Below, piece after piece: positions 2,698-37,167 of a stretch of 45,487 nucleotides of DNA. Numbering within the stretch: the stretch's first letter is position 1; each line of letters opens with the position of its first letter. Both the position numbers and the translations under genes were made by a program. A model generated the notes under the pieces. The model saw nothing but the letters and a program-made list of their open reading frames with translations. It did no database searches and was not told the origin of the DNA. Source of the stretch: a virus (taxonomy: Duplodnaviria; Caudoviricetes); IMG/VR virus record IMGVR_UViG_3300027815_000001, positions 1 to 45,487 of that record; one strand, written 5' to 3'.

Positions 2698-3348
2698 ATG
2701 GTAGACGAAGAAAAGGCACTGGATGGAGTCTTGCCGCAAACTCTGACCTACCGTTACTATGTAAAGGCAAGGAATGGGAAGAAGCGAGACTTCATCTATG
2801 ATTTCGCAAAGGCACGGAAGTGCCCGCACCCGAACTTGGTGGCTACGGCAATGGGCGGCAACACGTATCGGTGTACGGAGTGCAACTACTTCTACACCAT
2901 CGTGACCGCCTATGCCGAGCCGATGCACTTGGCTACAGTCAAGGCTGCCTACCAACTCTTGCACTTCAGCAAAGAGTTTGGGGTAGAAGCCTTGCAGGAA
3001 GTCCTACGGCAACCTCATGGACAGTCGGACGGTACTCCCCAGAAAGGTGTTCTGCCAGAGGGGATGAACTTTGCTGACGTTCTCGCTGCGTTGGAATCGG
3101 TCAATGTCAATACGCCAGACCGAGGCGCAGCAGAACTAAGAACGTTGGTGGAGTCCACTTGGCCGTCCGAGGTGGAAATGAAACGCCGAATAGAAGCGTT
3201 GCGTGGAAGTGATGCTCCCGGGAAACGGGAGTACGCTGACAAGCTAGAAGGCATGTTGGAGGCTAGAAATGCCCTTACAGGAAGTCATGGGGAAGTGCCC
3301 TCTCTGCCAGAAGCAGCAGAGCCGAATCTACCGCAAGGGGATTCGTGA
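2698..3348 (+). CDS. Hypothetical zinc-ribbon protein
   Basis: AAGGAG RBS; CPH...YRCTEC motif. Confidence 0.65.
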   Translation: MVDEEKALDGVLPQTLTYRYYVKARNGKKRDFIYDFAKARKCPHPNLVATAMGGNTYRCTECNYFYTIVTAYAEPMHLATVKAAYQLLHFSKEFGVEALQEVLRQPHGQSDGTPQKGVLPEGMNFADVLAALESVNVNTPDRGAAELRTLVESTWPSEVEMKRRIEALRGSDAPGKREYADKLEGMLEARNALTGSHGEVPSLPEAAEPNLPQGDS

Positions 3349-4222
3349 AGACCCCGAACGGCTAGTCTACGAATGCGGATTCTGTGGACTGGTCTACCTG
3401 GACAACAGAATAGCTGACCTGAAGGAATACTATCGTTCCGTCTATCGCAAGACGCACGATAGCATCCCAGGTCAGCAACTAACAGCGGAGCAACGGTTTC
3501 ACATTCAGTACGACCTGGCGCGGCCTTCGGTGAGAAAGTTCACCAGTGAAGTGCCGCCTGGTTCGTCTGTGTTGGAAATCGGCTGCTCCGCTGGCGGTTT
3601 TCTGGGGCATTTGGTGCAGAAGGGCTACGATTGTTACGGCAGCGAATGGAATCCAGAAGATGCAGCCTTTGTGCGTGATGTTGGCGAGATTCCTTGCGAA
3701 GAAGGAGACCTCGGCGACATCTACCCTGGCAAGAAGTTCACGGCCATTGTCGCCATAGCGACCATTGAGCACATCGCTGACCCTATGGCCTTCCTGCGTT
3801 CTTGCAGAGAGAAGTTGATAGGCGGCGGTTGGCTTTACCTAGAGACACCCAATCTACAGGACGCCTTGCTGTCCATGTACGAGTGCAAGGCGTATGCCGA
3901 CTTCTGGTTCAGGGAACCGCACATCACCTACTGGAAAGCCGAGACGTTGGGGGCAGTGGTAGCTGCCACAGGCTTTGAGGCCCGTGTGTTCTGGTATCCA
4001 CGGTATGGGCTACACAATCATGTCAACTGGCTCCTCAATGGGAAGCCGATGCAGGACGTAAAGCAGGCCCGTGGCAGGCTTTCACCCGTGCCAAAGACAA
4101 ATCCAGGAGCGGGCGCACTGAACCGCATCTGGGATCAGCTTGATGAGGAATACCGAGTCCAGATGGAGACGCTGTCTGTCGCCGATACACTGACCGTAAT
4201 GGCTAGGAGGCGGGAGATTTGA
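3269..4222 (+). CDS. Class I SAM-dependent methyltransferase with N-terminal zinc-binding motif (glycan-locus type)
   Basis: CPLC...CGFCG, VLEIGCSAG SAM motif, IEHIADP and LYLETPN motifs; GGAGG RBS. Confidence 0.85.
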   Translation: MPLQEVMGKCPLCQKQQSRIYRKGIREDPERLVYECGFCGLVYLDNRIADLKEYYRSVYRKTHDSIPGQQLTAEQRFHIQYDLARPSVRKFTSEVPPGSSVLEIGCSAGGFLGHLVQKGYDCYGSEWNPEDAAFVRDVGEIPCEEGDLGDIYPGKKFTAIVAIATIEHIADPMAFLRSCREKLIGGGWLYLETPNLQDALLSMYECKAYADFWFREPHITYWKAETLGAVVAATGFEARVFWYPRYGLHNHVNWLLNGKPMQDVKQARGRLSPVPKTNPGAGALNRIWDQLDEEYRVQMETLSVADTLTVMARRREI

Positions 4223-5028
4223 GCGACGTTCCTTCTCTTCGCCATCTGATCGTAGAGGAAGACCTGAACAAAGAACTGTTCGGCATACGGGCCTTCCCTA
4301 TGCGTGAACAGTACAGGAACCCTACCGACAACTGGGGCATGGACTTCGGCATGGACATGCCTCTGCCGTGGTTGAAGCAAGTCCATAATGCCTATGCCGG
4401 CAAACGATGCTTCATGCTAGGCACAGGCCCTTCTTTGAAGGCGCAATTAGATTTGTTGCCTAAGCTGGCAGGGGAGTTCACCTTCACCTGCAACCGCATG
4501 AAGCTCTGGGGAGAGTTGCCGTTCAAGCCCTTTGTGCATTGCATTACGGAGCCGAACCCAGTCATAGACTTCGGCCAGCGCATCAAGTCGCTTTATGACT
4601 TCCCAGGGGCCATGAACAAGGTGGCCTGTATCTGGTGGCCCGTGGTGGCTAAGGGCTGGTTGTGGATGCCCAAAGCTAGCGACGATATTCAGGTGCGATG
4701 GAACGGGACGTGGGGGTTGGGTGAGCACTTGCCGCCCGTACCTACGGCATGGGCGTCTCCATTGACCATCACGCAATTGGCCCTATGGATGGGGTTCTCC
4801 GAGGTCTACATGCTGGGGGTGGACACAACGCAGCAGGGGCAAGCGTGGGATGTAGACCAGGGGCGGACAGCGAAGCCTCGGAGCATCCGTTCCATCTTGG
4901 AATGCGCTGAACGGATGAACAGGGACATCAAGCGTAGTGGGCGGCAGTTCTGGGATTGCACACCAGGCGGGCGGCTGAATACAGAGGGGGCCATAGCCTA
5001 CAAATCCCTGGGAGAGGTACTTCTATGA
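4219..5028 (+). CDS. Maf/DUF115-like putative glycosyltransferase, paralogue 1
   Basis: GKRCFMLGTGPSL, FTCN, LALWMGFSEVYMLGVD and DCTPGG match the MAF_flag10/DUF115 pattern. Confidence 0.8.
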   Translation: MSDVPSLRHLIVEEDLNKELFGIRAFPMREQYRNPTDNWGMDFGMDMPLPWLKQVHNAYAGKRCFMLGTGPSLKAQLDLLPKLAGEFTFTCNRMKLWGELPFKPFVHCITEPNPVIDFGQRIKSLYDFPGAMNKVACIWWPVVAKGWLWMPKASDDIQVRWNGTWGLGEHLPPVPTAWASPLTITQLALWMGFSEVYMLGVDTTQQGQAWDVDQGRTAKPRSIRSILECAERMNRDIKRSGRQFWDCTPGGRLNTEGAIAYKSLGEVLL

Positions 5029-5150
5029 CAGAAGCGTTTGCCTACGGTTTGGCCTTTGGGTTGACATTCGGCGGGCTTGCGGGGCTGGTTGTAGGGTCAC
5101 TGGCAGAAGACGCCTTTGACTTCATCAAGTTCTGGGATAAGAGACGTTGA
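5025..5150 (+). CDS. Small membrane peptide (41 aa)
   Basis: MTEAFAYGLAFGLTFGGLAGLVVGSLA is one hydrophobic helix; the ORF overlaps both neighbours by 4 nt. Confidence 0.55.
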   Translation: MTEAFAYGLAFGLTFGGLAGLVVGSLAEDAFDFIKFWDKRR

Positions 5151-5869
5151 TGGAACATCCCAATGCTGCCAATCTTGCCGCCCTGCACAACATAGCCAGT
5201 GGGCGCATCTTTATGCTTGGTACAGGGCCTTCGCTCCTCAAACAGCAGGACTTGCTGCCAAAGTTGCGCGACGAGGCCACTTTTGCCTGCAATAGTCTTC
5301 CCCGCTGGAAAGAGTGCCCTTTTGTCCCAACCTATTACGCCGTCACGGATATTTACGGGGCAGCCTTGCTCAAAAAATATATCTGGCCTAGCCTACAATG
5401 CCCAAAGTTCCACATTGGATGGGATACCGAGGAAAGCATACCTGAGTTCCAGTGGGTGCATAAGGCTCACGATAGCATCCAGGTCTTTTCACAGGGCTTT
5501 GTTGGGTTTGGTGAAAGCCTGCCACCTATCCCCACAGGACGCACGTCGCCGCTGACCATGTGCCAGCTTGCTGCGTGGATGGGCTACCGAGAGTTCTACT
5601 TCCTGGGTATAGAGCAAAGCGACCACGGGTATGTGTATAACCCAGAGGTGAGCTTGGGGCATTCAGGGCGTGGTTTCAATTATGGACAACGGTATCTGTT
5701 GGCGGTGCAGCGGTGCTTTGCACGGGCGCGACTGGACATAGAAGCTGCGGGGGCAAAAGTCTATGACTGTACGCCTGGTGGTTGGTTGAACAACACAGGC
5801 CAGGCAAAGCGCGGGGTAGGGCACAAGGCAGTGCTGGAATATAAGCCATTGGAAGAGGTGCTGAAATGA
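5147..5869 (+). CDS. Maf/DUF115-like putative glycosyltransferase, paralogue 2
   Basis: RIFMLGTGPSL, FACN, LAAWMGYREFYFLGIE, DCTPGG. Confidence 0.8.
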   Translation: MMEHPNAANLAALHNIASGRIFMLGTGPSLLKQQDLLPKLRDEATFACNSLPRWKECPFVPTYYAVTDIYGAALLKKYIWPSLQCPKFHIGWDTEESIPEFQWVHKAHDSIQVFSQGFVGFGESLPPIPTGRTSPLTMCQLAAWMGYREFYFLGIEQSDHGYVYNPEVSLGHSGRGFNYGQRYLLAVQRCFARARLDIEAAGAKVYDCTPGGWLNNTGQAKRGVGHKAVLEYKPLEEVLK

Positions 5870-6879
5870 GTTTCTGGAAAGGCCAAAAGGTCACGGTCAC
5901 AGGATGTTCGGGCCTGATGGGAGCGCCGCTCTGCAAGTTTCTTCTTGAAGAAGGGGCGCAACTCACAGGCTACGACATGGCCGGGGATGGAATGCTGGCT
6001 GAGTATGGGCTAGTGGGCCAGTTCCCGCTACAGGTGGAGGACATCCGAAACCGAGAGGCCCTATGGCAAGCGGTGCGGCGACGTGGATTTGTCTTCCATC
6101 TTGCAGCCGTGAGCGGGGTTGAGGCGTCTCGCCAGAATCCCAAGCGGGCCTGGACGGTGAATTGCTCTGGGACTGGCGTCGTGCTGGACGTGTGTAAATC
6201 GGCAGGGACGGATGGGGCTGTGGTGGTAGCATCCAGTAACCACGTCTATGGGTTCCAGGAGAAGATGCCTGTACCTGAGACGGCGCAGTTGAACCAGTTG
6301 GACACGTACTCTGCCACCAAGATCGCCGTGGACTATATGGCCCGCTCCTATGCCCACAACTACCGTCTCCCAACGGTTATCATGCGGAACACCAACTGCT
6401 TTGGGCCGCACGACCCGCACAGGGATCATATTGTAGGGGGAACGCTCTTCGGGCTTGCGCAGGGGCAACGGCCTGTCATTCGCGGGACTGGGAAAACCAG
6501 CAAATCCTATCTCCATGTGGCGGATGTGGTAAGGGCGTACATGGCGGCAGCTGAATGGGAGGCAGGCTCAGGACGGTGTGGGGAGGTCTTCAATGTCTCG
6601 GACAAGCCCATCACCGTGCTGGACTTTGTGACGCTCATGTGCAAAGCCACAGGGCATCTGGACATGACGCCTACCGTGTTGGGGCAGTCCAACGACCAGA
6701 GCAATGAGTGGCTGGACGATTCCAAGATAAGGACGGTGACGCCGTGGAAGCCACGCTACAGCCTAGAATCCGCAATACAGGAGACGTATCAGTGGGTGCT
6801 GGCCTCACTAGAGACGCTTACAAAGGAGAACGCCTCTTTGTCCTCGGCACAGGGCCTTCGCTCAAAGATTGCAACCTAA
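5866..6879 (+). CDS. NAD-dependent nucleotide-sugar epimerase/dehydratase (extended SDR)
   Basis: VTGCSGLMG Rossmann motif, VFHLAA, ASS, YSATK catalytic YxxxK, RNTNCFGP. Confidence 0.9.
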   Translation: MSFWKGQKVTVTGCSGLMGAPLCKFLLEEGAQLTGYDMAGDGMLAEYGLVGQFPLQVEDIRNREALWQAVRRRGFVFHLAAVSGVEASRQNPKRAWTVNCSGTGVVLDVCKSAGTDGAVVVASSNHVYGFQEKMPVPETAQLNQLDTYSATKIAVDYMARSYAHNYRLPTVIMRNTNCFGPHDPHRDHIVGGTLFGLAQGQRPVIRGTGKTSKSYLHVADVVRAYMAAAEWEAGSGRCGEVFNVSDKPITVLDFVTLMCKATGHLDMTPTVLGQSNDQSNEWLDDSKIRTVTPWKPRYSLESAIQETYQWVLASLETLTKENASLSSAQGLRSKIAT

Positions 6880-7418
6880 AGAAGCTAAAGGGCGAATACA
6901 CCTTTGGCGTCAATGGCTTATGCGCATGGAAGAACGCGCCCAAGCTGACCTTCTACGGCCTGAGCGAGCACGGGTCATGGGAGCGATGGGCGACACTAGC
7001 ACGGGATACCTTTAGCGGGGCTACGTTCATTGGGGCGAATCAGGGCCGCGCTCCGGTGAATGGGTGGTACATCGTGGACAGACGGTTCAGTTGGCCGTTG
7101 CATGGTGGATACTTCGGTGGACGGGATGCAGAGTTCCAGTGGGTGGCGATGTCGTACTCAGTGGTTTACGAGCTTTGCTTGCAAGCAGCTTTTTGGCTTG
7201 GTTTCCAGGAGGTCTATTTGTTGGGCTGCGACCATAAAGGCACGGAGCATGTGTACCAGGGCCACAACAAGTACCAGCCCGCACATCTGAGCACCCTTAT
7301 CCCAGGGGTACAGACGTGCCTTGACGTTTACAGCCAAGCAGGGCGCAAATTGCTGGACTGCACCCCAGACTCGGGGATCGGTATCATACCGCATAAACCA
7401 TTGGAGGCAGTGCTATGA
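6792..7418 (+). CDS. Maf/DUF115-like putative glycosyltransferase, paralogue 3
   Basis: GERLFVLGTGPSL, FGVN, AFWLGFQEVYLLGCD, DCTP. GTG 6792 has an AGGAG RBS, a better start than 6708. Confidence 0.8.
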   Translation: MGAGLTRDAYKGERLFVLGTGPSLKDCNLKKLKGEYTFGVNGLCAWKNAPKLTFYGLSEHGSWERWATLARDTFSGATFIGANQGRAPVNGWYIVDRRFSWPLHGGYFGGRDAEFQWVAMSYSVVYELCLQAAFWLGFQEVYLLGCDHKGTEHVYQGHNKYQPAHLSTLIPGVQTCLDVYSQAGRKLLDCTPDSGIGIIPHKPLEAVL

Positions 7419-8143
7419 ACACCATCGCAATCATACCAGCTAGGGGTGGAAGCAAAGGCATTCCGCACAAGAACATCGTGCCCTGCGCTGGTAAGCCATT
7501 GCTGTCATGGACGATAGAAGCGGCGTTAGCAGCGCACAGCGTGAGTCAGGTGATCGTGTCTAGCGACGACAAGGATATTCTGGATTGCGCCGTGCGTTAC
7601 GGGGCGCTGGCGTTCTTGCGCTCAGACGTGTTGGCGAAGGACGAAACGCCAACAGAGCCAGTGATGCAGGAGGTACTGCAAAGTCTAACGGAAGAACCTG
7701 GCACAGTCGTGCTCTTGCAGCCAACATCTCCTGTGCGTACAGGGCAGCAGATTGACGAGGCCGTGGCGGTGTTAGAGCGTGGTTATGCCTCTGTGTTGTC
7801 CGTAGTTCCAAGCCATGCCTTCCTTTGGAGGTGGCAACCTGGGAGTGCTGTAGCTGAGTACGACTACGCGCATCGGCCCCGGCGTCAAGAGTTCTCCCAG
7901 TTCCAAGAGAACGGGAGCATCTATGTGACCACGTATGCGCAATGGAAGCGTACAAGAAACAGAATTGGTGGGCGTATCGGGCTTTACATCATGCCTGAAG
8001 AATCAGCGCTCCAAATTGACACCCCACTAGACCTCTACTTGGTAGAGAAGATTTTGGAGCGGCAACATGGTCATGCTGGGGCAACGACTGGTAGCGCAGG
8101 ATCAGCCTCCGTATCTGTGCGCGGAGATTGGTATCAATCATGA
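7415..8143 (+). CDS. neuA: CMP-nonulosonic acid (acylneuraminate) cytidylyltransferase
   Basis: IIPARGGSKGIPHKNI, LLQPTSP, ENGSIY and IDTPLD are NeuA/PseF family motifs. Confidence 0.92.
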   Translation: MNTIAIIPARGGSKGIPHKNIVPCAGKPLLSWTIEAALAAHSVSQVIVSSDDKDILDCAVRYGALAFLRSDVLAKDETPTEPVMQEVLQSLTEEPGTVVLLQPTSPVRTGQQIDEAVAVLERGYASVLSVVPSHAFLWRWQPGSAVAEYDYAHRPRRQEFSQFQENGSIYVTTYAQWKRTRNRIGGRIGLYIMPEESALQIDTPLDLYLVEKILERQHGHAGATTGSAGSASVSVRGDWYQS

Positions 8144-8957
8144 CGGGAGCCTTGAACGTGCGCTTTGGCTCATAGACCAGGCGTCGCTTGCAGGCGCACA
8201 TGCCGTCAAGTTTCAGAAGCGCACCCCTGAACTGGCTGTCCCGCGTTCCGAGTGGGATAAGCCTAAAGAGACACCCTGGGGCGAGATTATGCCCTACATT
8301 GAGTACAAACGGCGCATGGAGTTCGGACGGGCAGAGTATGACGCCATTGCCCAACGGTGCAAGGACGATGGGATTGATTGGTTCGCCTCCCCCTGGGACG
8401 AACCATCTGTGGAGTTCCTGGAACAGTACGAGCCAATCGCTTACAAGATAGGTTCCCCCTCTTTGACGGACAAACCGCTCATAGAGCGCATCATCAAGAC
8501 GGGTAGGCCCATCATCCTCTCCACGGGCATGTCCACCATCTATGAGATAGGTCAGGCCGTTTGGTGGCTGCACGACCAGCAACGGCGACTGATTCTGCTT
8601 CACTGCACGTCCATCTATCCTTGCCCGCCGGACAAGATGAACCTGTCTATGCTCAGAACGCTAAGAGAAGCCTTCCCGCACGTCGTTATCGGATACTCTG
8701 GGCATGAACGTGGCACTGACCATGTGGCGGCGGAAGTGGCATTGGGGGCCTGTTTCCTGGAACGCCACTTCACCAAAGACAGGTTCGCTAAAGGCTCAGA
8801 CCATGCAGCAAGTCTAGAGCCGTGGCAGTTCTGCGACCTTGCAGTGAAGGCTAACAGGACGTGGCTGGCGCTTGGCAATGGCGAGAAGCAGGTCTATGCT
8901 GAAGAACAAGCGAATGCTGCCAAGCTCAGGCGGTCACTGTTTCAGGAGGTGCATTGA
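8067..8957 (+). CDS. neuB: Nonulosonic acid synthase (NeuB family), without C-terminal SAF domain
   Basis: AEIGINHDG, KFQKR, KIGS, STGMS, LHCTSIYP, GYSGHE, ERHFT, GSDHAASLEP. Confidence 0.93.
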   Translation: MVMLGQRLVAQDQPPYLCAEIGINHDGSLERALWLIDQASLAGAHAVKFQKRTPELAVPRSEWDKPKETPWGEIMPYIEYKRRMEFGRAEYDAIAQRCKDDGIDWFASPWDEPSVEFLEQYEPIAYKIGSPSLTDKPLIERIIKTGRPIILSTGMSTIYEIGQAVWWLHDQQRRLILLHCTSIYPCPPDKMNLSMLRTLREAFPHVVIGYSGHERGTDHVAAEVALGACFLERHFTKDRFAKGSDHAASLEPWQFCDLAVKANRTWLALGNGEKQVYAEEQANAAKLRRSLFQEVH

Positions 8958-15648: not shown

Positions 15649-15906
15649 ATGACGACTGACGAGACTTCCCCTACATCGGAACCACCAAAGGTTCCCAAGA
15701 GGCCGCGTAGTGCCCCACGCAAGCCTGCGCCTCCAACCCAAGAGGAACAGCTTGCCGAGGATATGCGGCTGATTGCTGAGAGTGCTAAGGCTGTCGGTAT
15801 GAAATCGCTAAGGACACTGGCGGAACGGGGCCTCACTTTCCTGGACGCTCTAGGCGACCAGTCAACTCCTGATACCACGAAGAAGCTGCCACTGAAGAGG
15901 AAGTAA
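15649..15906 (+). CDS. Hypothetical protein (Pro/Lys-rich N-terminus, amphipathic helix)
   Basis: ORF coupled to the next gene by TAATG; start uncertain (15607, 15613 or 15649). Confidence 0.55.
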   Translation: MTTDETSPTSEPPKVPKRPRSAPRKPAPPTQEEQLAEDMRLIAESAKAVGMKSLRTLAERGLTFLDALGDQSTPDTTKKLPLKRK

Positions 15907-16127
15907 TGGGATGGCTGACCAGTTCCTTGATGGCAAGCGTGGTAGTCGCAGTTGTAGCAGTCCGAATCTGCGAGTACCTCTTTGGGGGTGTGACCAGCGG
16001 CTTGGGCTGGGGTGTGAGATACGCGGTCTTTTGCCTGACCTGGACGGCAGTTACTACACTAACTGGAATGCACGGTGTTTCTAAACAGATGCGCCGGTTG
16101 AAACAAACAATGATAAGGAGAATCTAA
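15906..16127 (+). CDS. Small two-helix membrane protein (holin-like topology)
   Basis: Two hydrophobic segments and a basic C-terminus; TAATG coupling on both sides. Confidence 0.55.
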   Translation: MGWLTSSLMASVVVAVVAVRICEYLFGGVTSGLGWGVRYAVFCLTWTAVTTLTGMHGVSKQMRRLKQTMIRRI

Positions 16128-16249
16128 TGGGGCCAAAAGAATTTATGTACCTTGGAATCGTTGGCCTTATCGGGCTTGTCCTGGGCGGCGGCCTCACCTG
16201 GCTTACGAAGTTCTTCAAGGGCAAGAATAACACCACGCCAAAGGCATAA
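16127..16249 (+). CDS. TatA-like single-TM peptide (40 aa; not in ORF track)
   Basis: AAGGAG RBS. MGPKEFMYLGIVGLIGLVLGGGLTWLTKFFKGKNNTTPKA has GxxE, a short TM helix, a Gly hinge and an amphipathic FFK segment, and sits directly upstream of tatC. Confidence 0.5.
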   Translation: MGPKEFMYLGIVGLIGLVLGGGLTWLTKFFKGKNNTTPKA

Positions 16250-17073
16250 CCATCTGGACACCACAGGCGCAGGCCGCACTCAAGCGGTTTGCGGGAAGGG
16301 TACGCCGGCGGCTTCTCTGGATAATCATCGCTTGGGCAATAGGTGCAAGCAACACCTGGTGGTTCCGAGAGGCGGTGTTTGCGTTCCTGTTTGCCCCCGC
16401 TAACGGCGCTTTGTCGCCTTACGGGGGACTCCCCATCTTCACAAGCCCAGGCGGGATGATGGGCGTTACATTTAGTCTGGCGGTAAAGGGCGGCTTGGTC
16501 GCTGCGTTCCCCGTTGCAGTAGTTAGCGTCTACACGCTGGTGAGGCCGTTGCTGAGTCCACAGCATCGGCGGATTGTCATCCTCTTCCTGCCTGCTATCC
16601 TCGTGTGTTTCCTCGCTGGGGTAGCGTTTGCCTATTTCGTGATGCTGCCCACAGGGATGAAGTTTCTCCTCAATTTCGGAGAGGGCATCGCAGTCCCGCT
16701 CATCAGCATCACGGAATACATGAGCCTGGTCACATCGCTCATTTTCTGGATTGGCGTGACCTTTGAGTTGCCGCTTGTCATGCTCCTTCTCACGAAGCTG
16801 AGGCTCGTACCATACGAGCGCTTCAAGCGAGCTAGCAAGTACGTTCCTTTCGCGGCAGTTGCCCTAGGCGGGTTTATCACGCCCACGGTTGATGAAGTCA
16901 ATCAGACGTTGATAGCAGTACCAATCATCCTCTTGTATGGGTTCGGGCTGTTCCTGTCGTGGCTGGCACGGGCAAAGCCGGTGGGCCACAAGAGCATCTG
17001 GCAGAAAGCTAAGGCGTGGTTCAAGGGCTGGCTAGACCGCTTGGCTTGGCGGTGGTTCTCATTCTGGCAGTGA
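16246..17073 (+). CDS. tatC: Twin-arginine translocase subunit TatC homologue (divergent)
   Basis: Six hydrophobic segments. GVAFAYFVMLP, ISITEY, FWIGVTFELP and ITPTVDEVNQTLIAVPIILLY match TatC. A TM1-like segment (RVRRRLLWIIIAW) lies in frame upstream of the called GTG 16375, so the true start is near 16246. Confidence 0.88.
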   Translation: MTIWTPQAQAALKRFAGRVRRRLLWIIIAWAIGASNTWWFREAVFAFLFAPANGALSPYGGLPIFTSPGGMMGVTFSLAVKGGLVAAFPVAVVSVYTLVRPLLSPQHRRIVILFLPAILVCFLAGVAFAYFVMLPTGMKFLLNFGEGIAVPLISITEYMSLVTSLIFWIGVTFELPLVMLLLTKLRLVPYERFKRASKYVPFAAVALGGFITPTVDEVNQTLIAVPIILLYGFGLFLSWLARAKPVGHKSIWQKAKAWFKGWLDRLAWRWFSFWQ

Positions 17074-35242: not shown

Positions 35243-35738
35243 GGCGTTGGTGCTTATTGAGGAGTCGCTGAAGGTAAGGCGCGGCATGAAGGGGCGTGAA
35301 CTGGTGGAGGCGGCGTACCTGGACAGTGGGGAAGGCGTCAAAGAGGGCTGGCACTTGCTCAGGGAAGAAGAACGCGGAGTTGTTGCCCAGATGGTGCGCT
35401 ACGCGGGGGAACTTGGGAAAGTGGGAGAGGCTTTGAGATTAGAGCCTGAGTACATTCAAAAGATGATGGAAGTGAGGCCGTGGGTGAAGCGGGCCATAGA
35501 CTACTACATGGAGGTTGGGGTAGAGGCATTGAACAGGGCCGTAGTGCAGCAGCATGTGAGCGAGGGCTTGTTGGACACCGTGCCCGCTGTGCTCCGGGGG
35601 AAAGAGGTGGCAGCGGAGACGAAGCGGAAGACGGTGAGGGACATGATGGAGGCCGGGGGATACTACCCGAAGATGGGCGGGCCGATGGTGGCGAACCAGG
35701 TCAACGTGAAGGTTGAAGTCCCTGACTGGAAGAAGTAA
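35232..35738 (+). CDS. Putative terminase small subunit
   Basis: Helical protein with a C-terminal beta strand (QVNVKVEV), directly upstream of terL. Confidence 0.55.
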   Translation: MEAKALVLIEESLKVRRGMKGRELVEAAYLDSGEGVKEGWHLLREEERGVVAQMVRYAGELGKVGEALRLEPEYIQKMMEVRPWVKRAIDYYMEVGVEALNRAVVQQHVSEGLLDTVPAVLRGKEVAAETKRKTVRDMMEAGGYYPKMGGPMVANQVNVKVEVPDWKK

Positions 35739-35742
35739 GGCG

Positions 35743-37167
35743 ATGCAGCAGCGGATGCAGATAGCGCCTGAGTACAGACCGAGGGGGTGGGCGTTGCCCG
35801 TGCATAGGAGCAAGGCCAAGAGGAAGGTCTTGTGGGTGCATCGGCGTGGTGGGAAGGGATGGTTCGGCCATCACGAGGGGTTGGCGGCGTATGTGCAGAG
35901 GCTAAGTGAACCGCCGCCGAGCATGAAAGTGCCCAAGTTCCATGCGTGGACGGTAGTGCCGACGTTCCCACAGGCGCGGCAGGCGGAAACTGAACTAGAG
36001 CGGTTCATCCCCGATTGGGCAAAGCCTGAGCCAACGTGGAACGATACGAGCAGGGGGTATAACAGGGCCGACCATACGTTCAAGCTCGTGTACCCCAATG
36101 GGCACGGGTTTTGGGAAGTGAAGTCCGCGCATGATCCAGAGGGCTTGCAGACGGTGGGACTGGACTATTTGCACGTCCAGGAGTGCCAGGACATCACAGA
36201 GGCGGCATTCAACAAGCTGTTGCCCACGCTAAGAGACCCAGACCGTCTGGGTCTTTCTGTTTGGGAGGGGATACCGCCTGACGACCCAAGCCATTGGTTT
36301 GCCAGGATGATGACGGCGGCGGAAGCGGATAAGAACGGGAACAGCTTGGCGGTCAAGGTCAACTACGAGGATAACAAGGACTTGGCCCCTGATGTCCGGG
36401 TGTTGATAGAAGAAGACATGGGCGTGATGCTGGAGCGGGACTGGCGGCGGATGTACATGGTGGAACTCCCAGAAGGGACAGGCAGTTTTCTTGGGAACGT
36501 GGCCGGCTGCATAGGCGGGCAAGAGGTGAATGGGCCAGAAGAGGGGCATCGGTATGTCATGGGGGTAGACCTTGCAAAGAAGGTAGACTTCACTGTGCTG
36601 GTGGTTATGGACATGGCGAATAGGCAGGTCGTGTGGCAGCGTCGGTTCGGCGGCATGGACTGGAATGTACAGGAAGAGGCCATTATCACGGCGTCGGCGG
36701 ATTTCCACGTAAGGCGCATCATGCTGGACTCTACAGGCGTGGGCGACCCTATGTACGACAAGTTGCTGTTCAAGGGCCTCCCAGTAGAGCCTTTCCTGTT
36801 CACGAATGAAAGCAAGTACCGTCTGCTTACCGAGTTAGCTGTAGCGATTGAGAAGAGGACTGTACGTTATCCGAACATTCCTGTTATGCTACGGGAAATG
36901 CAATCGTTGCGGGCGGAGAAGTTGCCGAGTGGTCGGAGCCGAGTAGAAGCGCCCGATGGACAGCATGACGATTACCCGATGGCGTTGGCGTTGGCGCTCT
37001 CTGTGTGCGATCCGCCGCCTGAAATGATGATTGTGGGGCGATTGGGCAGCAGGAGCTACATTGAAGAGGCAGGGCAGCCAGCTAGATACGGCGGGGGCGC
37101 GTGGTTGGCACGGCAGCGAATGCTTGATAAGATACGGGCACGGCAGGACGCCTTAGAGGTAGCCTGA
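35743..37167 (+). CDS. terL: Terminase large subunit
   Basis: HRRGGKG Walker A-like, VPTFPQA, KSAHDPEGL, and nuclease motifs GVDLAKKVD, LDSTGVGD and HDD. Confidence 0.9.
   Translation: MQQRMQIAPEYRPRGWALPVHRSKAKRKVLWVHRRGGKGWFGHHEGLAAYVQRLSEPPPSMKVPKFHAWTVVPTFPQARQAETELERFIPDWAKPEPTWNDTSRGYNRADHTFKLVYPNGHGFWEVKSAHDPEGLQTVGLDYLHVQECQDITEAAFNKLLPTLRDPDRLGLSVWEGIPPDDPSHWFARMMTAAEADKNGNSLAVKVNYEDNKDLAPDVRVLIEEDMGVMLERDWRRMYMVELPEGTGSFLGNVAGCIGGQEVNGPEEGHRYVMGVDLAKKVDFTVLVVMDMANRQVVWQRRFGGMDWNVQEEAIITASADFHVRRIMLDSTGVGDPMYDKLLFKGLPVEPFLFTNESKYRLLTELAVAIEKRTVRYPNIPVMLREMQSLRAEKLPSGRSRVEAPDGQHDDYPMALALALSVCDPPPEMMIVGRLGSRSYIEEAGQPARYGGGAWLARQRMLDKIRARQDALEVA

Follow-up and report, generated by a model that had tools for sequence, protein, structure and literature searches.

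Results

A four-gene cassette ends the virion gene block

The window, which is the whole stretch of DNA analysed here, is an entire IMG/VR virus record, a single phage contig of 45,487 bases. Scans against Pfam and PHROGs place a capsid gene at 23-865, tail-like genes that reach up to 15616, and a terminase at 35713-37167. The plus-strand block of virion genes ends in a cassette of four genes, orfX, orfY, a gene encoding a 40-aa peptide and, last, a tatC homologue designated tatC*, whose stops and starts abut or overlap and which is faced by convergent genes (Table 1). This cassette was missed in the initial annotation, which dealt with the tatC* frame from sequence alone. A scan of the window for promoters and terminators gave a signal near shuffle level. 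A sugar-modification cluster lies between the capsid and tail genes at 3269-8957 and comprises a methyltransferase, MptE-like/sialyltransferase-like genes, a nucleotide-sugar epimerase, a cytidylyltransferase and NeuB. Over the tested stretch, contigs from four sequencing runs are identical, and all four runs may be the source of this DNA; among them, a 45,129-base contig from two groundwater runs covers the tested stretch with zero differences, so that these runs may be its source. None of the sequencing runs listed is an RNA dataset holding the sequence.

Table 1. Cassette genes and TatC* residues in the window; residues named first follow E. coli TatC numbering
Feature	Positions	Strand	Basis
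orfX: 85 aa, soluble, variable at the N-terminus, with conserved amphipathic helices after it; assigned to no known family	15649..15906	+	
orfY: 73 aa, two hydrophobic segments, basic amphipathic tail; no known family	15906..16127	+	
TatA-like 40-aa peptide with an N-terminal Glu ahead of a single membrane helix, then a Gly hinge and a short basic helix	16127..16249	+	
TatC*: TatC homologue of six helices, lacking the RR-signal site	16252..17073	+	Pfam/NCBIfam, alignment, model
Former signal site, N-terminal half: H12 to F15 (16288), E15 to R18 (16297)	16288..16299	+	alignment
Former signal site, TM2-3 loop: F94 to L98 (16537), Y100 to S104 (16555), E103 to H107 (16564)	16537..16566	+	alignment
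E170 equivalent (FELP), kept as E174	16765..16767	+	alignment
Polar-cluster (TatA/B docking) region: T208 as T212 (16879), D211 as D216 (16891), Q215 as Q220 (16903), all kept	16870..16905	+	alignment; role from PMC13323110

TatC* is a TatC by sequence and fold

The frame 16246-17073 is open over 275 codons and encodes a single domain of 275 aa. It matches PF00902 with an E-value of 1.6e-45 (155.9 bits, against a cut-off of 25.1) and TIGR00945 with 134.5 bits (cut-off 132.7). An AlphaFold model with a pLDDT of 87.6 matches, at E<=0.001, only TatC chains (7 chains, TMq 0.62-0.69, E 1.8e-9 to 1.5e-6), the first non-TatC structure appearing at E 1.7; the fold implied by the initial annotation is borne out, and TatC* is a TatC by both sequence and structure. 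The sole significant match in a viral structure library, an unnamed entry of 418 residues, has the length of a TatC-lysozyme construct and was not counted as a viral relative. The C-terminal helix of TatC* is basic and Trp-rich. PHROG 36238, to which no function is assigned there, also matches (6.4e-19), and an HMM scan found one TatC frame per phage genome. In the GenBank phage collection 10 records contain a match to TatC*, all below 32% identity and none covering 80%. Two records named Listeria phage, OR848119.1 and OR846728.1, contain unannotated TatC matches of about 30% and are possibly host contigs.

No ATG, GTG or TTG precedes the first helix of tatC*. The likelier start is the ATC at 16252, two bases past the upstream stop, with the ATA at 16246 as the alternative; the ATC is favoured because the +2 offset recurs among relatives. 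A canonical start lies at exactly +2 from the upstream stop in 21 of 73 junctions, and of the 14 junctions that have no canonical start, seven, this window included, have ATC at +2.

TatC* has lost the residues that recognise the twin-arginine signal and kept those that bind TatA/B

Residues were placed by HMMER alignment to Aquifex and Myxococcus TatC and by MAFFT alignment to E. coli TatC (NC_000913.3), whose numbering is used throughout. The structure of TatBC with MdoD names H12, E15, F94, Y100 and E103 as key for signal recognition (PMC13323110), and all five are replaced in TatC*. The by-eye reading that E15, F94 and E103 had become R, L and H, and that the twin-arginine (RR) site was lost, holds under formal alignment, with neither position 15 nor position 103 acidic and with H12 and Y100 added to the losses. 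The N-terminal half of the former site now sits in an amphipathic Arg-rich helix. The proposed retention of E170 and of the D211/Q215 region was likewise correct, T208 included, which is one of two residues, with Q215, that bind TatB E8 or TatA position 8 (PMC13323110). P48 is retained as well, and M205, the third residue of the polar cluster, and E227 have both become Gly.

The F94 substitution had been over-weighted as a sign of site loss. The change itself is real, but F94L and E15G, each tested singly in E. coli, are absent from the table of inactivating changes in PMC3712464 (Tables 1-2), which does include E103G/K, and F94A and E103A together block signal binding (PMC5102672). The case for loss of the site therefore rests on the combination of changes. 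Judged by this set of defining residues, TatC* does not qualify as an RR receptor.

Loss of the RR site is a trait of the viral clade

At E<=1e-10, 723 proteins matched TatC*, of which the best 120 were listed and 121 rows aligned. Among these best 120 of 723 matches, position 15 is R in 82 rows, K in 15 and G in 4, with 20 gaps, so that none of 101 residues is acidic; position 94 is L in 119 of 121 rows; and no row of 121 has an acid at position 103. Together with the identical contigs from the four runs, these counts show the substitutions to be neither chance nor a sequencing error. T208 and D211 are kept in 121/121 rows, Q215 in 98/121 and E170 in 112/121. Position 205, Gly in TatC*, is Ala in most rows, as in Chloroflexota.

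Loci were then compared for 12 viral matches, the best 80 of 564 metagenome matches and the best 80 of 555 GTDB matches; metagenome contigs were taken as viral from the shared cassette rather than from a viral classifier. Among distinct viral and metagenome sequences (the latter from the best 80 of 564), an acid occurs at position 15 in 0/86 and at position 103 in 9/91. Cellular TatC, by contrast, retains the site: of the best 80 of 555 GTDB matches, 79 of which are Chloroflexota by title, 79 keep H12, 77 E15, 79 F94 and 76 E103, and one of the E15 exceptions, L019, is a misalignment. Cellular TatC, judged from 79 distinct Chloroflexota rows, conserves twelve positions that the viral set has lost, and eight of these lie in the two signal-binding segments. 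A further 26 positions, including T208, P209 and D211, are conserved in both cellular and viral TatC, and the periplasmic cap residues are conserved in the viral set. In the viral clade, five residues of TM1 are newly fixed.

The median dN/dS of tatC* is 0.29 over 681 unsaturated pairs and ranges from 0.20 to 0.38 in the 19 pairs that include the window gene, and 15 columns are invariant among 62 sequences. Loss of the RR site is thus a trait of the clade under purifying selection, and the substitutions first read in a single sequence extend to its viral homologues. Among 41 disjoint pairs, dN/dS is 0.20-0.22 in TM4-6 and 0.20 in TM5-6 and peaks within the protein at 0.45 in the TM2-3 loop, where 24 cellular pairs give 0.135. 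In addition, E103 has become Gln in about half of the sequences, and E15 has become Gly in 13 of 75 metagenome loci (from the best 80 of 564). The loop pattern looks like release of the signal site rather than fixation of a new pocket, and for this reason the charge-reversed specificity offered in the initial annotation is the weaker of its two readings and is poorly supported.

In a quick maximum-likelihood tree of 34 viral/metagenome rows, 41 cellular rows and E. coli, the viral and metagenome rows form one side of a single branch (SH-aLRT 99, length 0.71). The root of this tree is a midpoint root only, so the branch does not identify the donor of viral tatC*; the cellular row closest to the viral clade is L019, with support of 93 and on a long branch. 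Ten early-branching members (L139, L140, L143, L146, L147, L153, L157, L159, L161 and L163) have lost both E15 and E103; F94 is kept in all 10 and H12 in 7. Members with F94 and without the two acids suggest that the site was lost stepwise, probably acids first. E103 is kept in a separate subgroup (L004, L011, L121-L123, L125, L128 and L133) and in L150.

The partner genes include a TatA-like peptide

All three partner genes were detected in 45 of the 50 loci with at least 900 bases of upstream DNA available, and the cassette, situated after tail genes and before convergent genes, occurs in marine, lake and groundwater contigs. Of 80 loci for which upstream DNA is available, 78 encode the 40-aa peptide directly upstream of tatC*. 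The polar residue that precedes its single membrane helix is nearly invariant (Glu in 74/78, Asp in 4/78), and by analogy with TatA/B this Glu would be the counterpart expected for the retained T208/Q215. Some peptides start like TatA (MFGMGPQELLII in L008). Homology of the peptide to TatA is weak. Profile comparison by hhalign gave a probability of 55 against host TatA, with 4 of 60 block shuffles scoring higher on match columns, and of 78 against TatB over 14 columns. PF02416 was absent among the 25 families listed for 68 members, a K/R-L-P motif occurs in 0/78 peptides, and FG occurs in only 6/78. The helix runs 15 residues to GG in 54/78 peptides, versus 12 in host TatA, and the amphipathic helix is weaker than that of host TatA (0.51 vs 0.74).

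The homologues of orfY form 127 clusters at 50% identity, all of 36-103 aa and belonging to no family. Its best score in the ESM Atlas was 0.79, with one structure row, under threshold, named putative holin, and the orfY profile found no match in the genomes searched from a set of 401 of the Dehalococcoidia class. In seven loci (L007:5587-5860, L130, L135, L138, L145, L170 and L171) orfY is split at a conserved CCT/CCC-TT(T/C) run. This run fits a -1 slippery heptamer and is a candidate site of programmed frameshifting with two products: the zero frame encodes a 49-aa one-helix product, and a -1 shift restores the full two-helix protein. The orfX family HMM matches the window protein at 4e-14, the window sequence itself being part of the alignment. 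The idea that orfX and orfY are split-off TatA/B helices was rejected (hhalign probabilities 0.2-2.5). In one locus (L001:5001-5823) an HNH-like gene, its motif recognised by eye, and another small gene lie between orfY and the TatA-like gene.

The cassette shares its slot with an alternative membrane-gene module

The genes that follow the tail genes were surveyed with a tail protein common to six cassette-bearing phages, the best 80 of 263 relatives being kept; the window's own tail protein falls outside this family, and the resulting counts are not phylogenetically independent. Against viral contigs, the window's 791-aa tail protein matched the identical record only. Among the 23 tail loci with at least 5 kb downstream (from the best 80 of 263), the cassette is present in 4. 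An alternative pair, a two-helix peptide with a larger, membrane-anchored protein, takes its place in 16; a further 2 have just the larger of these proteins, 1 has neither module, and in no locus do the two occur together. Furthermore, the alternative genes were found in 0 of 104 TatC-bearing loci, duplicates included. The cassette and the alternative module are mutually exclusive in these relatives.

The alternative peptide (for example L219:16640-16795) has 50-59 aa and two helices. Five of 16 members match the lambda-S holin family PF05106, the best at 2.8e-4, with none reaching the Pfam cut-off; DUF2878 is matched by 6 of these 16, and PHROG holin 785 by 2 of 5 tested. These weak holin matches lend limited weight to the idea that the slot may be an exit slot. 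The larger protein (for example L234:11856-12782) has 290-430 aa, is membrane-anchored and mostly beta, and has 2133 homologues and no family match. Foldseek gave no match to it at E<=0.001, VIA a best Z of 5.5 over the N-terminal helices with the beta part barely covered, and the ESM Atlas a best score of 0.76.

A Pfam scan of 207 proteins, drawn from five relatives at least 90% complete (G003, G004, G006, G007 and G011, with gene calls made in this analysis), the window and three extras, detected neither lysin nor holin families. The scan covered proteins of 75 aa and longer other than two giant proteins, and just 42 of the 207 matched any Pfam family, so a divergent lysin could be missed. 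PHROGs found no lysin or holin in 59 window proteins, and no cassette protein matched a holin family at cut-off, a search in which small holins are often missed.

The host is predicted to be a Dehalococcoidia-type bacterium without a cell wall

The best GTDB match of TatC* has 44% identity (best 80 of 555), and the nearest cellular TatC is from Dehalococcoidia. Among 401 Dehalococcoidia-class genomes, one (G133) contains the surveyed tail family, inside a 1.36-Mb contig, where a 40-kb prophage at about 784000-824000 of contig C4 (L275-L277) has the same tail and portal families and an integrase-like gene. The G133 genome has no murD match and has an intact TatC (L279). Its prophage has neither module, a third set of small membrane genes holding the slot; since the window's tail protein also lies outside the family, the link to this host is indirect, via the shared cassette. 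Of 14 genomes chosen from the nearest cellular TatC matches, 13 have no murD match over the cut-off, and the one murD-positive genome is the source of L019, the cellular neighbour of the viral clade in the tree. Most Dehalococcoidia orders descend from an ancestor in which the peptidoglycan genes were lost, in a single event (PMC10284905). The host is predicted to be of the Dehalococcoidia type and without a cell wall.

Discussion

We propose, tentatively and at somewhat less than an even chance, that the four genes build a phage-private, cargo-independent membrane-thinning complex that breaches the host membrane late in infection. TatC* would trimerise, and the Glu of the 40-aa peptide would dock at T208/Q215 in the way that E8 of TatA/B does in the canonical system. 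With the signal site gone, assembly would no longer wait for cargo. The thinning produced by such a Tat core, together with orfY and orfX, may weaken the membrane to the point where virions escape from a Dehalococcoidia cell that has no peptidoglycan and for which an endolysin would not be needed, and the near-cognate start may keep TatC* scarce relative to its partners. Several precedents are consistent with parts of this scheme. In simulation TatBC thins the membrane from 38 to 26 Å (PMC13323110, section 6); one change, TatB F13Y, gives a substrate-independent assembly that is insensitive to signal-site mutations (PMC10092561); and a TatA-shaped holin, TpeE, exists (PMC9527704). Against thinning, the longer helix and weaker amphipathic helix of the peptide would reduce the mismatch that is thought to thin membranes. 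A broader form of the proposal, which is possible but on balance doubtful, is that this widespread phage family has turned the Tat core into a cargo-free machine that breaches the membrane for exit from peptidoglycan-free bacteria. Its parts would be a trimer of signal-blind TatC, a shortened TatA and two accessory proteins that are new, and other uncharacterised exit modules could take its place in the slot.

TatC* could instead act on the host system, joining host TatC trimers as a signal-blind subunit or titrating host TatA, with host RR export blocked or re-tuned. The docking site and the periplasmic cap residues are conserved, as such a role would require; TatC is an obligate oligomer (PMC5102672), RR-dead subunits are known in haloarchaeal heterocomplexes (PMC13673990, section 11), and the putative host keeps an intact TatC. 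We nevertheless think this unlikely, since the phage comes with a Glu-helix peptide of its own plus two further genes, the five newly fixed residues of TM1, the second TatA/B contact face, fit a new partner, and the end of the virion genes would be a late position for host takeover. Moreover, F94R is not dominant negative in E. coli, where cap mutants alone are (PMC5102672, section 6). The suggestion that a signal-independent TatC recruits or sequesters TatA/B therefore fared unevenly: signal independence is the better of the two options first offered, and sequestration of host TatA/B is weakened both by the near-constant presence of the phage's own peptide and by the behaviour of F94R.

It is more doubtful still that TatC* and the TatA-like peptide form a private translocase that exports or inserts a phage protein, orfX or orfY, through a non-RR and possibly acidic signal. 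A basic residue occupies position 15 in 71 of 86 distinct viral/metagenome sequences, the N-terminal segment of TatC carries a mean net charge of +5.6 in the viral set vs +1.4 in cells, E170 is kept, and 24 of 33 orfX N-termini are acidic (<= -3). The basic N-terminal residues of TatC*, however, fit the positive-inside rule. The orfX N-terminus is neutral or basic in 6/33, has a charge of +3 in the window, and shows no motif and a length anywhere between 21 and 71 residues, and the TM2-3 loop is relaxed rather than re-fixed. A simple pattern for an RR-type signal was found in 0 of 445 called ORFs of 8 genomes.

A non-lytic membrane role seems to us improbable, whether in superinfection exclusion, in DNA entry, or in membrane-linked assembly or budding of virions. 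The alternative occupant of the slot does include a protein that is anchored in the membrane, consists mostly of beta strands and has no lytic match, and in 16 loci a gene of the DedA/VTT domain (PF09335, 3e-10; for example L126:1174-1719, minus strand) is convergent with tatC*, this gene being absent from the window's cassette region. Small membrane gene sets, however, occupy the slot of nearly every relative examined and no recognised lysin was found, from which we infer that an exit function is needed somewhere in these genomes. Finally, a captured host gene decaying without function might be read from the lost key residues, the missing canonical start in the window and at other junctions, and a tatC* cut by a nonsense or frameshift change in L152, but this reading is very improbable and is largely refuted by the low dN/dS values, the invariant columns and the conservation of the cassette across marine, lake and groundwater contigs.

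The cassette and the alternative that swaps in for it are concrete candidates for the means by which tailed phages leave peptidoglycan-free bacteria, which include most Dehalococcoidia and among them SAR202. In addition, a Tat core that has the TatA/B site and no cargo recognition offers a natural uncoupling experiment that asks whether membrane thinning alone can open a bilayer.

Comparison with known systems

We know of no holin system with a TatC scaffold. With holin-like proteins of the TpeE/BhlA and lambda S families the cassette shares its position at the end of a late operon and its small membrane proteins, and its peptide has a TatA-like topology, as does TpeE (PMC9527704). It differs in that no cassette protein passes a holin family cut-off and no endolysin partner was found.

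Both an RR-dead TatC and a viral TatC label are already in print. In our literature search, which covered main texts outside subscription journals, the only trace of a viral TatC was a 'TatC' label in the legend of Fig. 6 of PMC10564846, which shows the genome map of a marine virus, a passage that gives no residue analysis, cassette or function. A 2026 review (PMC13673990) describes second bacterial TatCs, Chloroflexota included, that all keep the RR site; its main text reports loss of the site for haloarchaeal TatCt only and does not contain the words 'virus' or 'viral'. TatCt, like TatC*, has TatC domains without F94 and E103, and these are proposed to be structural subunits of trimers (PMC13673990, section 11). 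TatCt is, however, a cellular and essential 14-helix tandem fusion with two inactive RR sites that is paired with an RR-competent TatCo (PMC13673990), whereas TatC* is a viral, Chloroflexota-related single domain of 275 aa, in a phage that has no RR-competent TatC.

With the canonical TatC of the TatABC core, TatC* shares the six-helix glove fold, E170, T208/Q215, D211 and P48, and a gene placed directly after that of a single-helix Glu peptide. It departs from canonical TatC in the replacement of H12, E15, F94, Y100 and E103, in its remodelled TM1 and basic, Trp-rich C-terminal helix, in being phage-borne and often initiated at a near-cognate start, and in its company, a partner that has no FGxxKLP hinge and two extra genes. 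TatC* is thus a bacterial-type TatC without the RR site.
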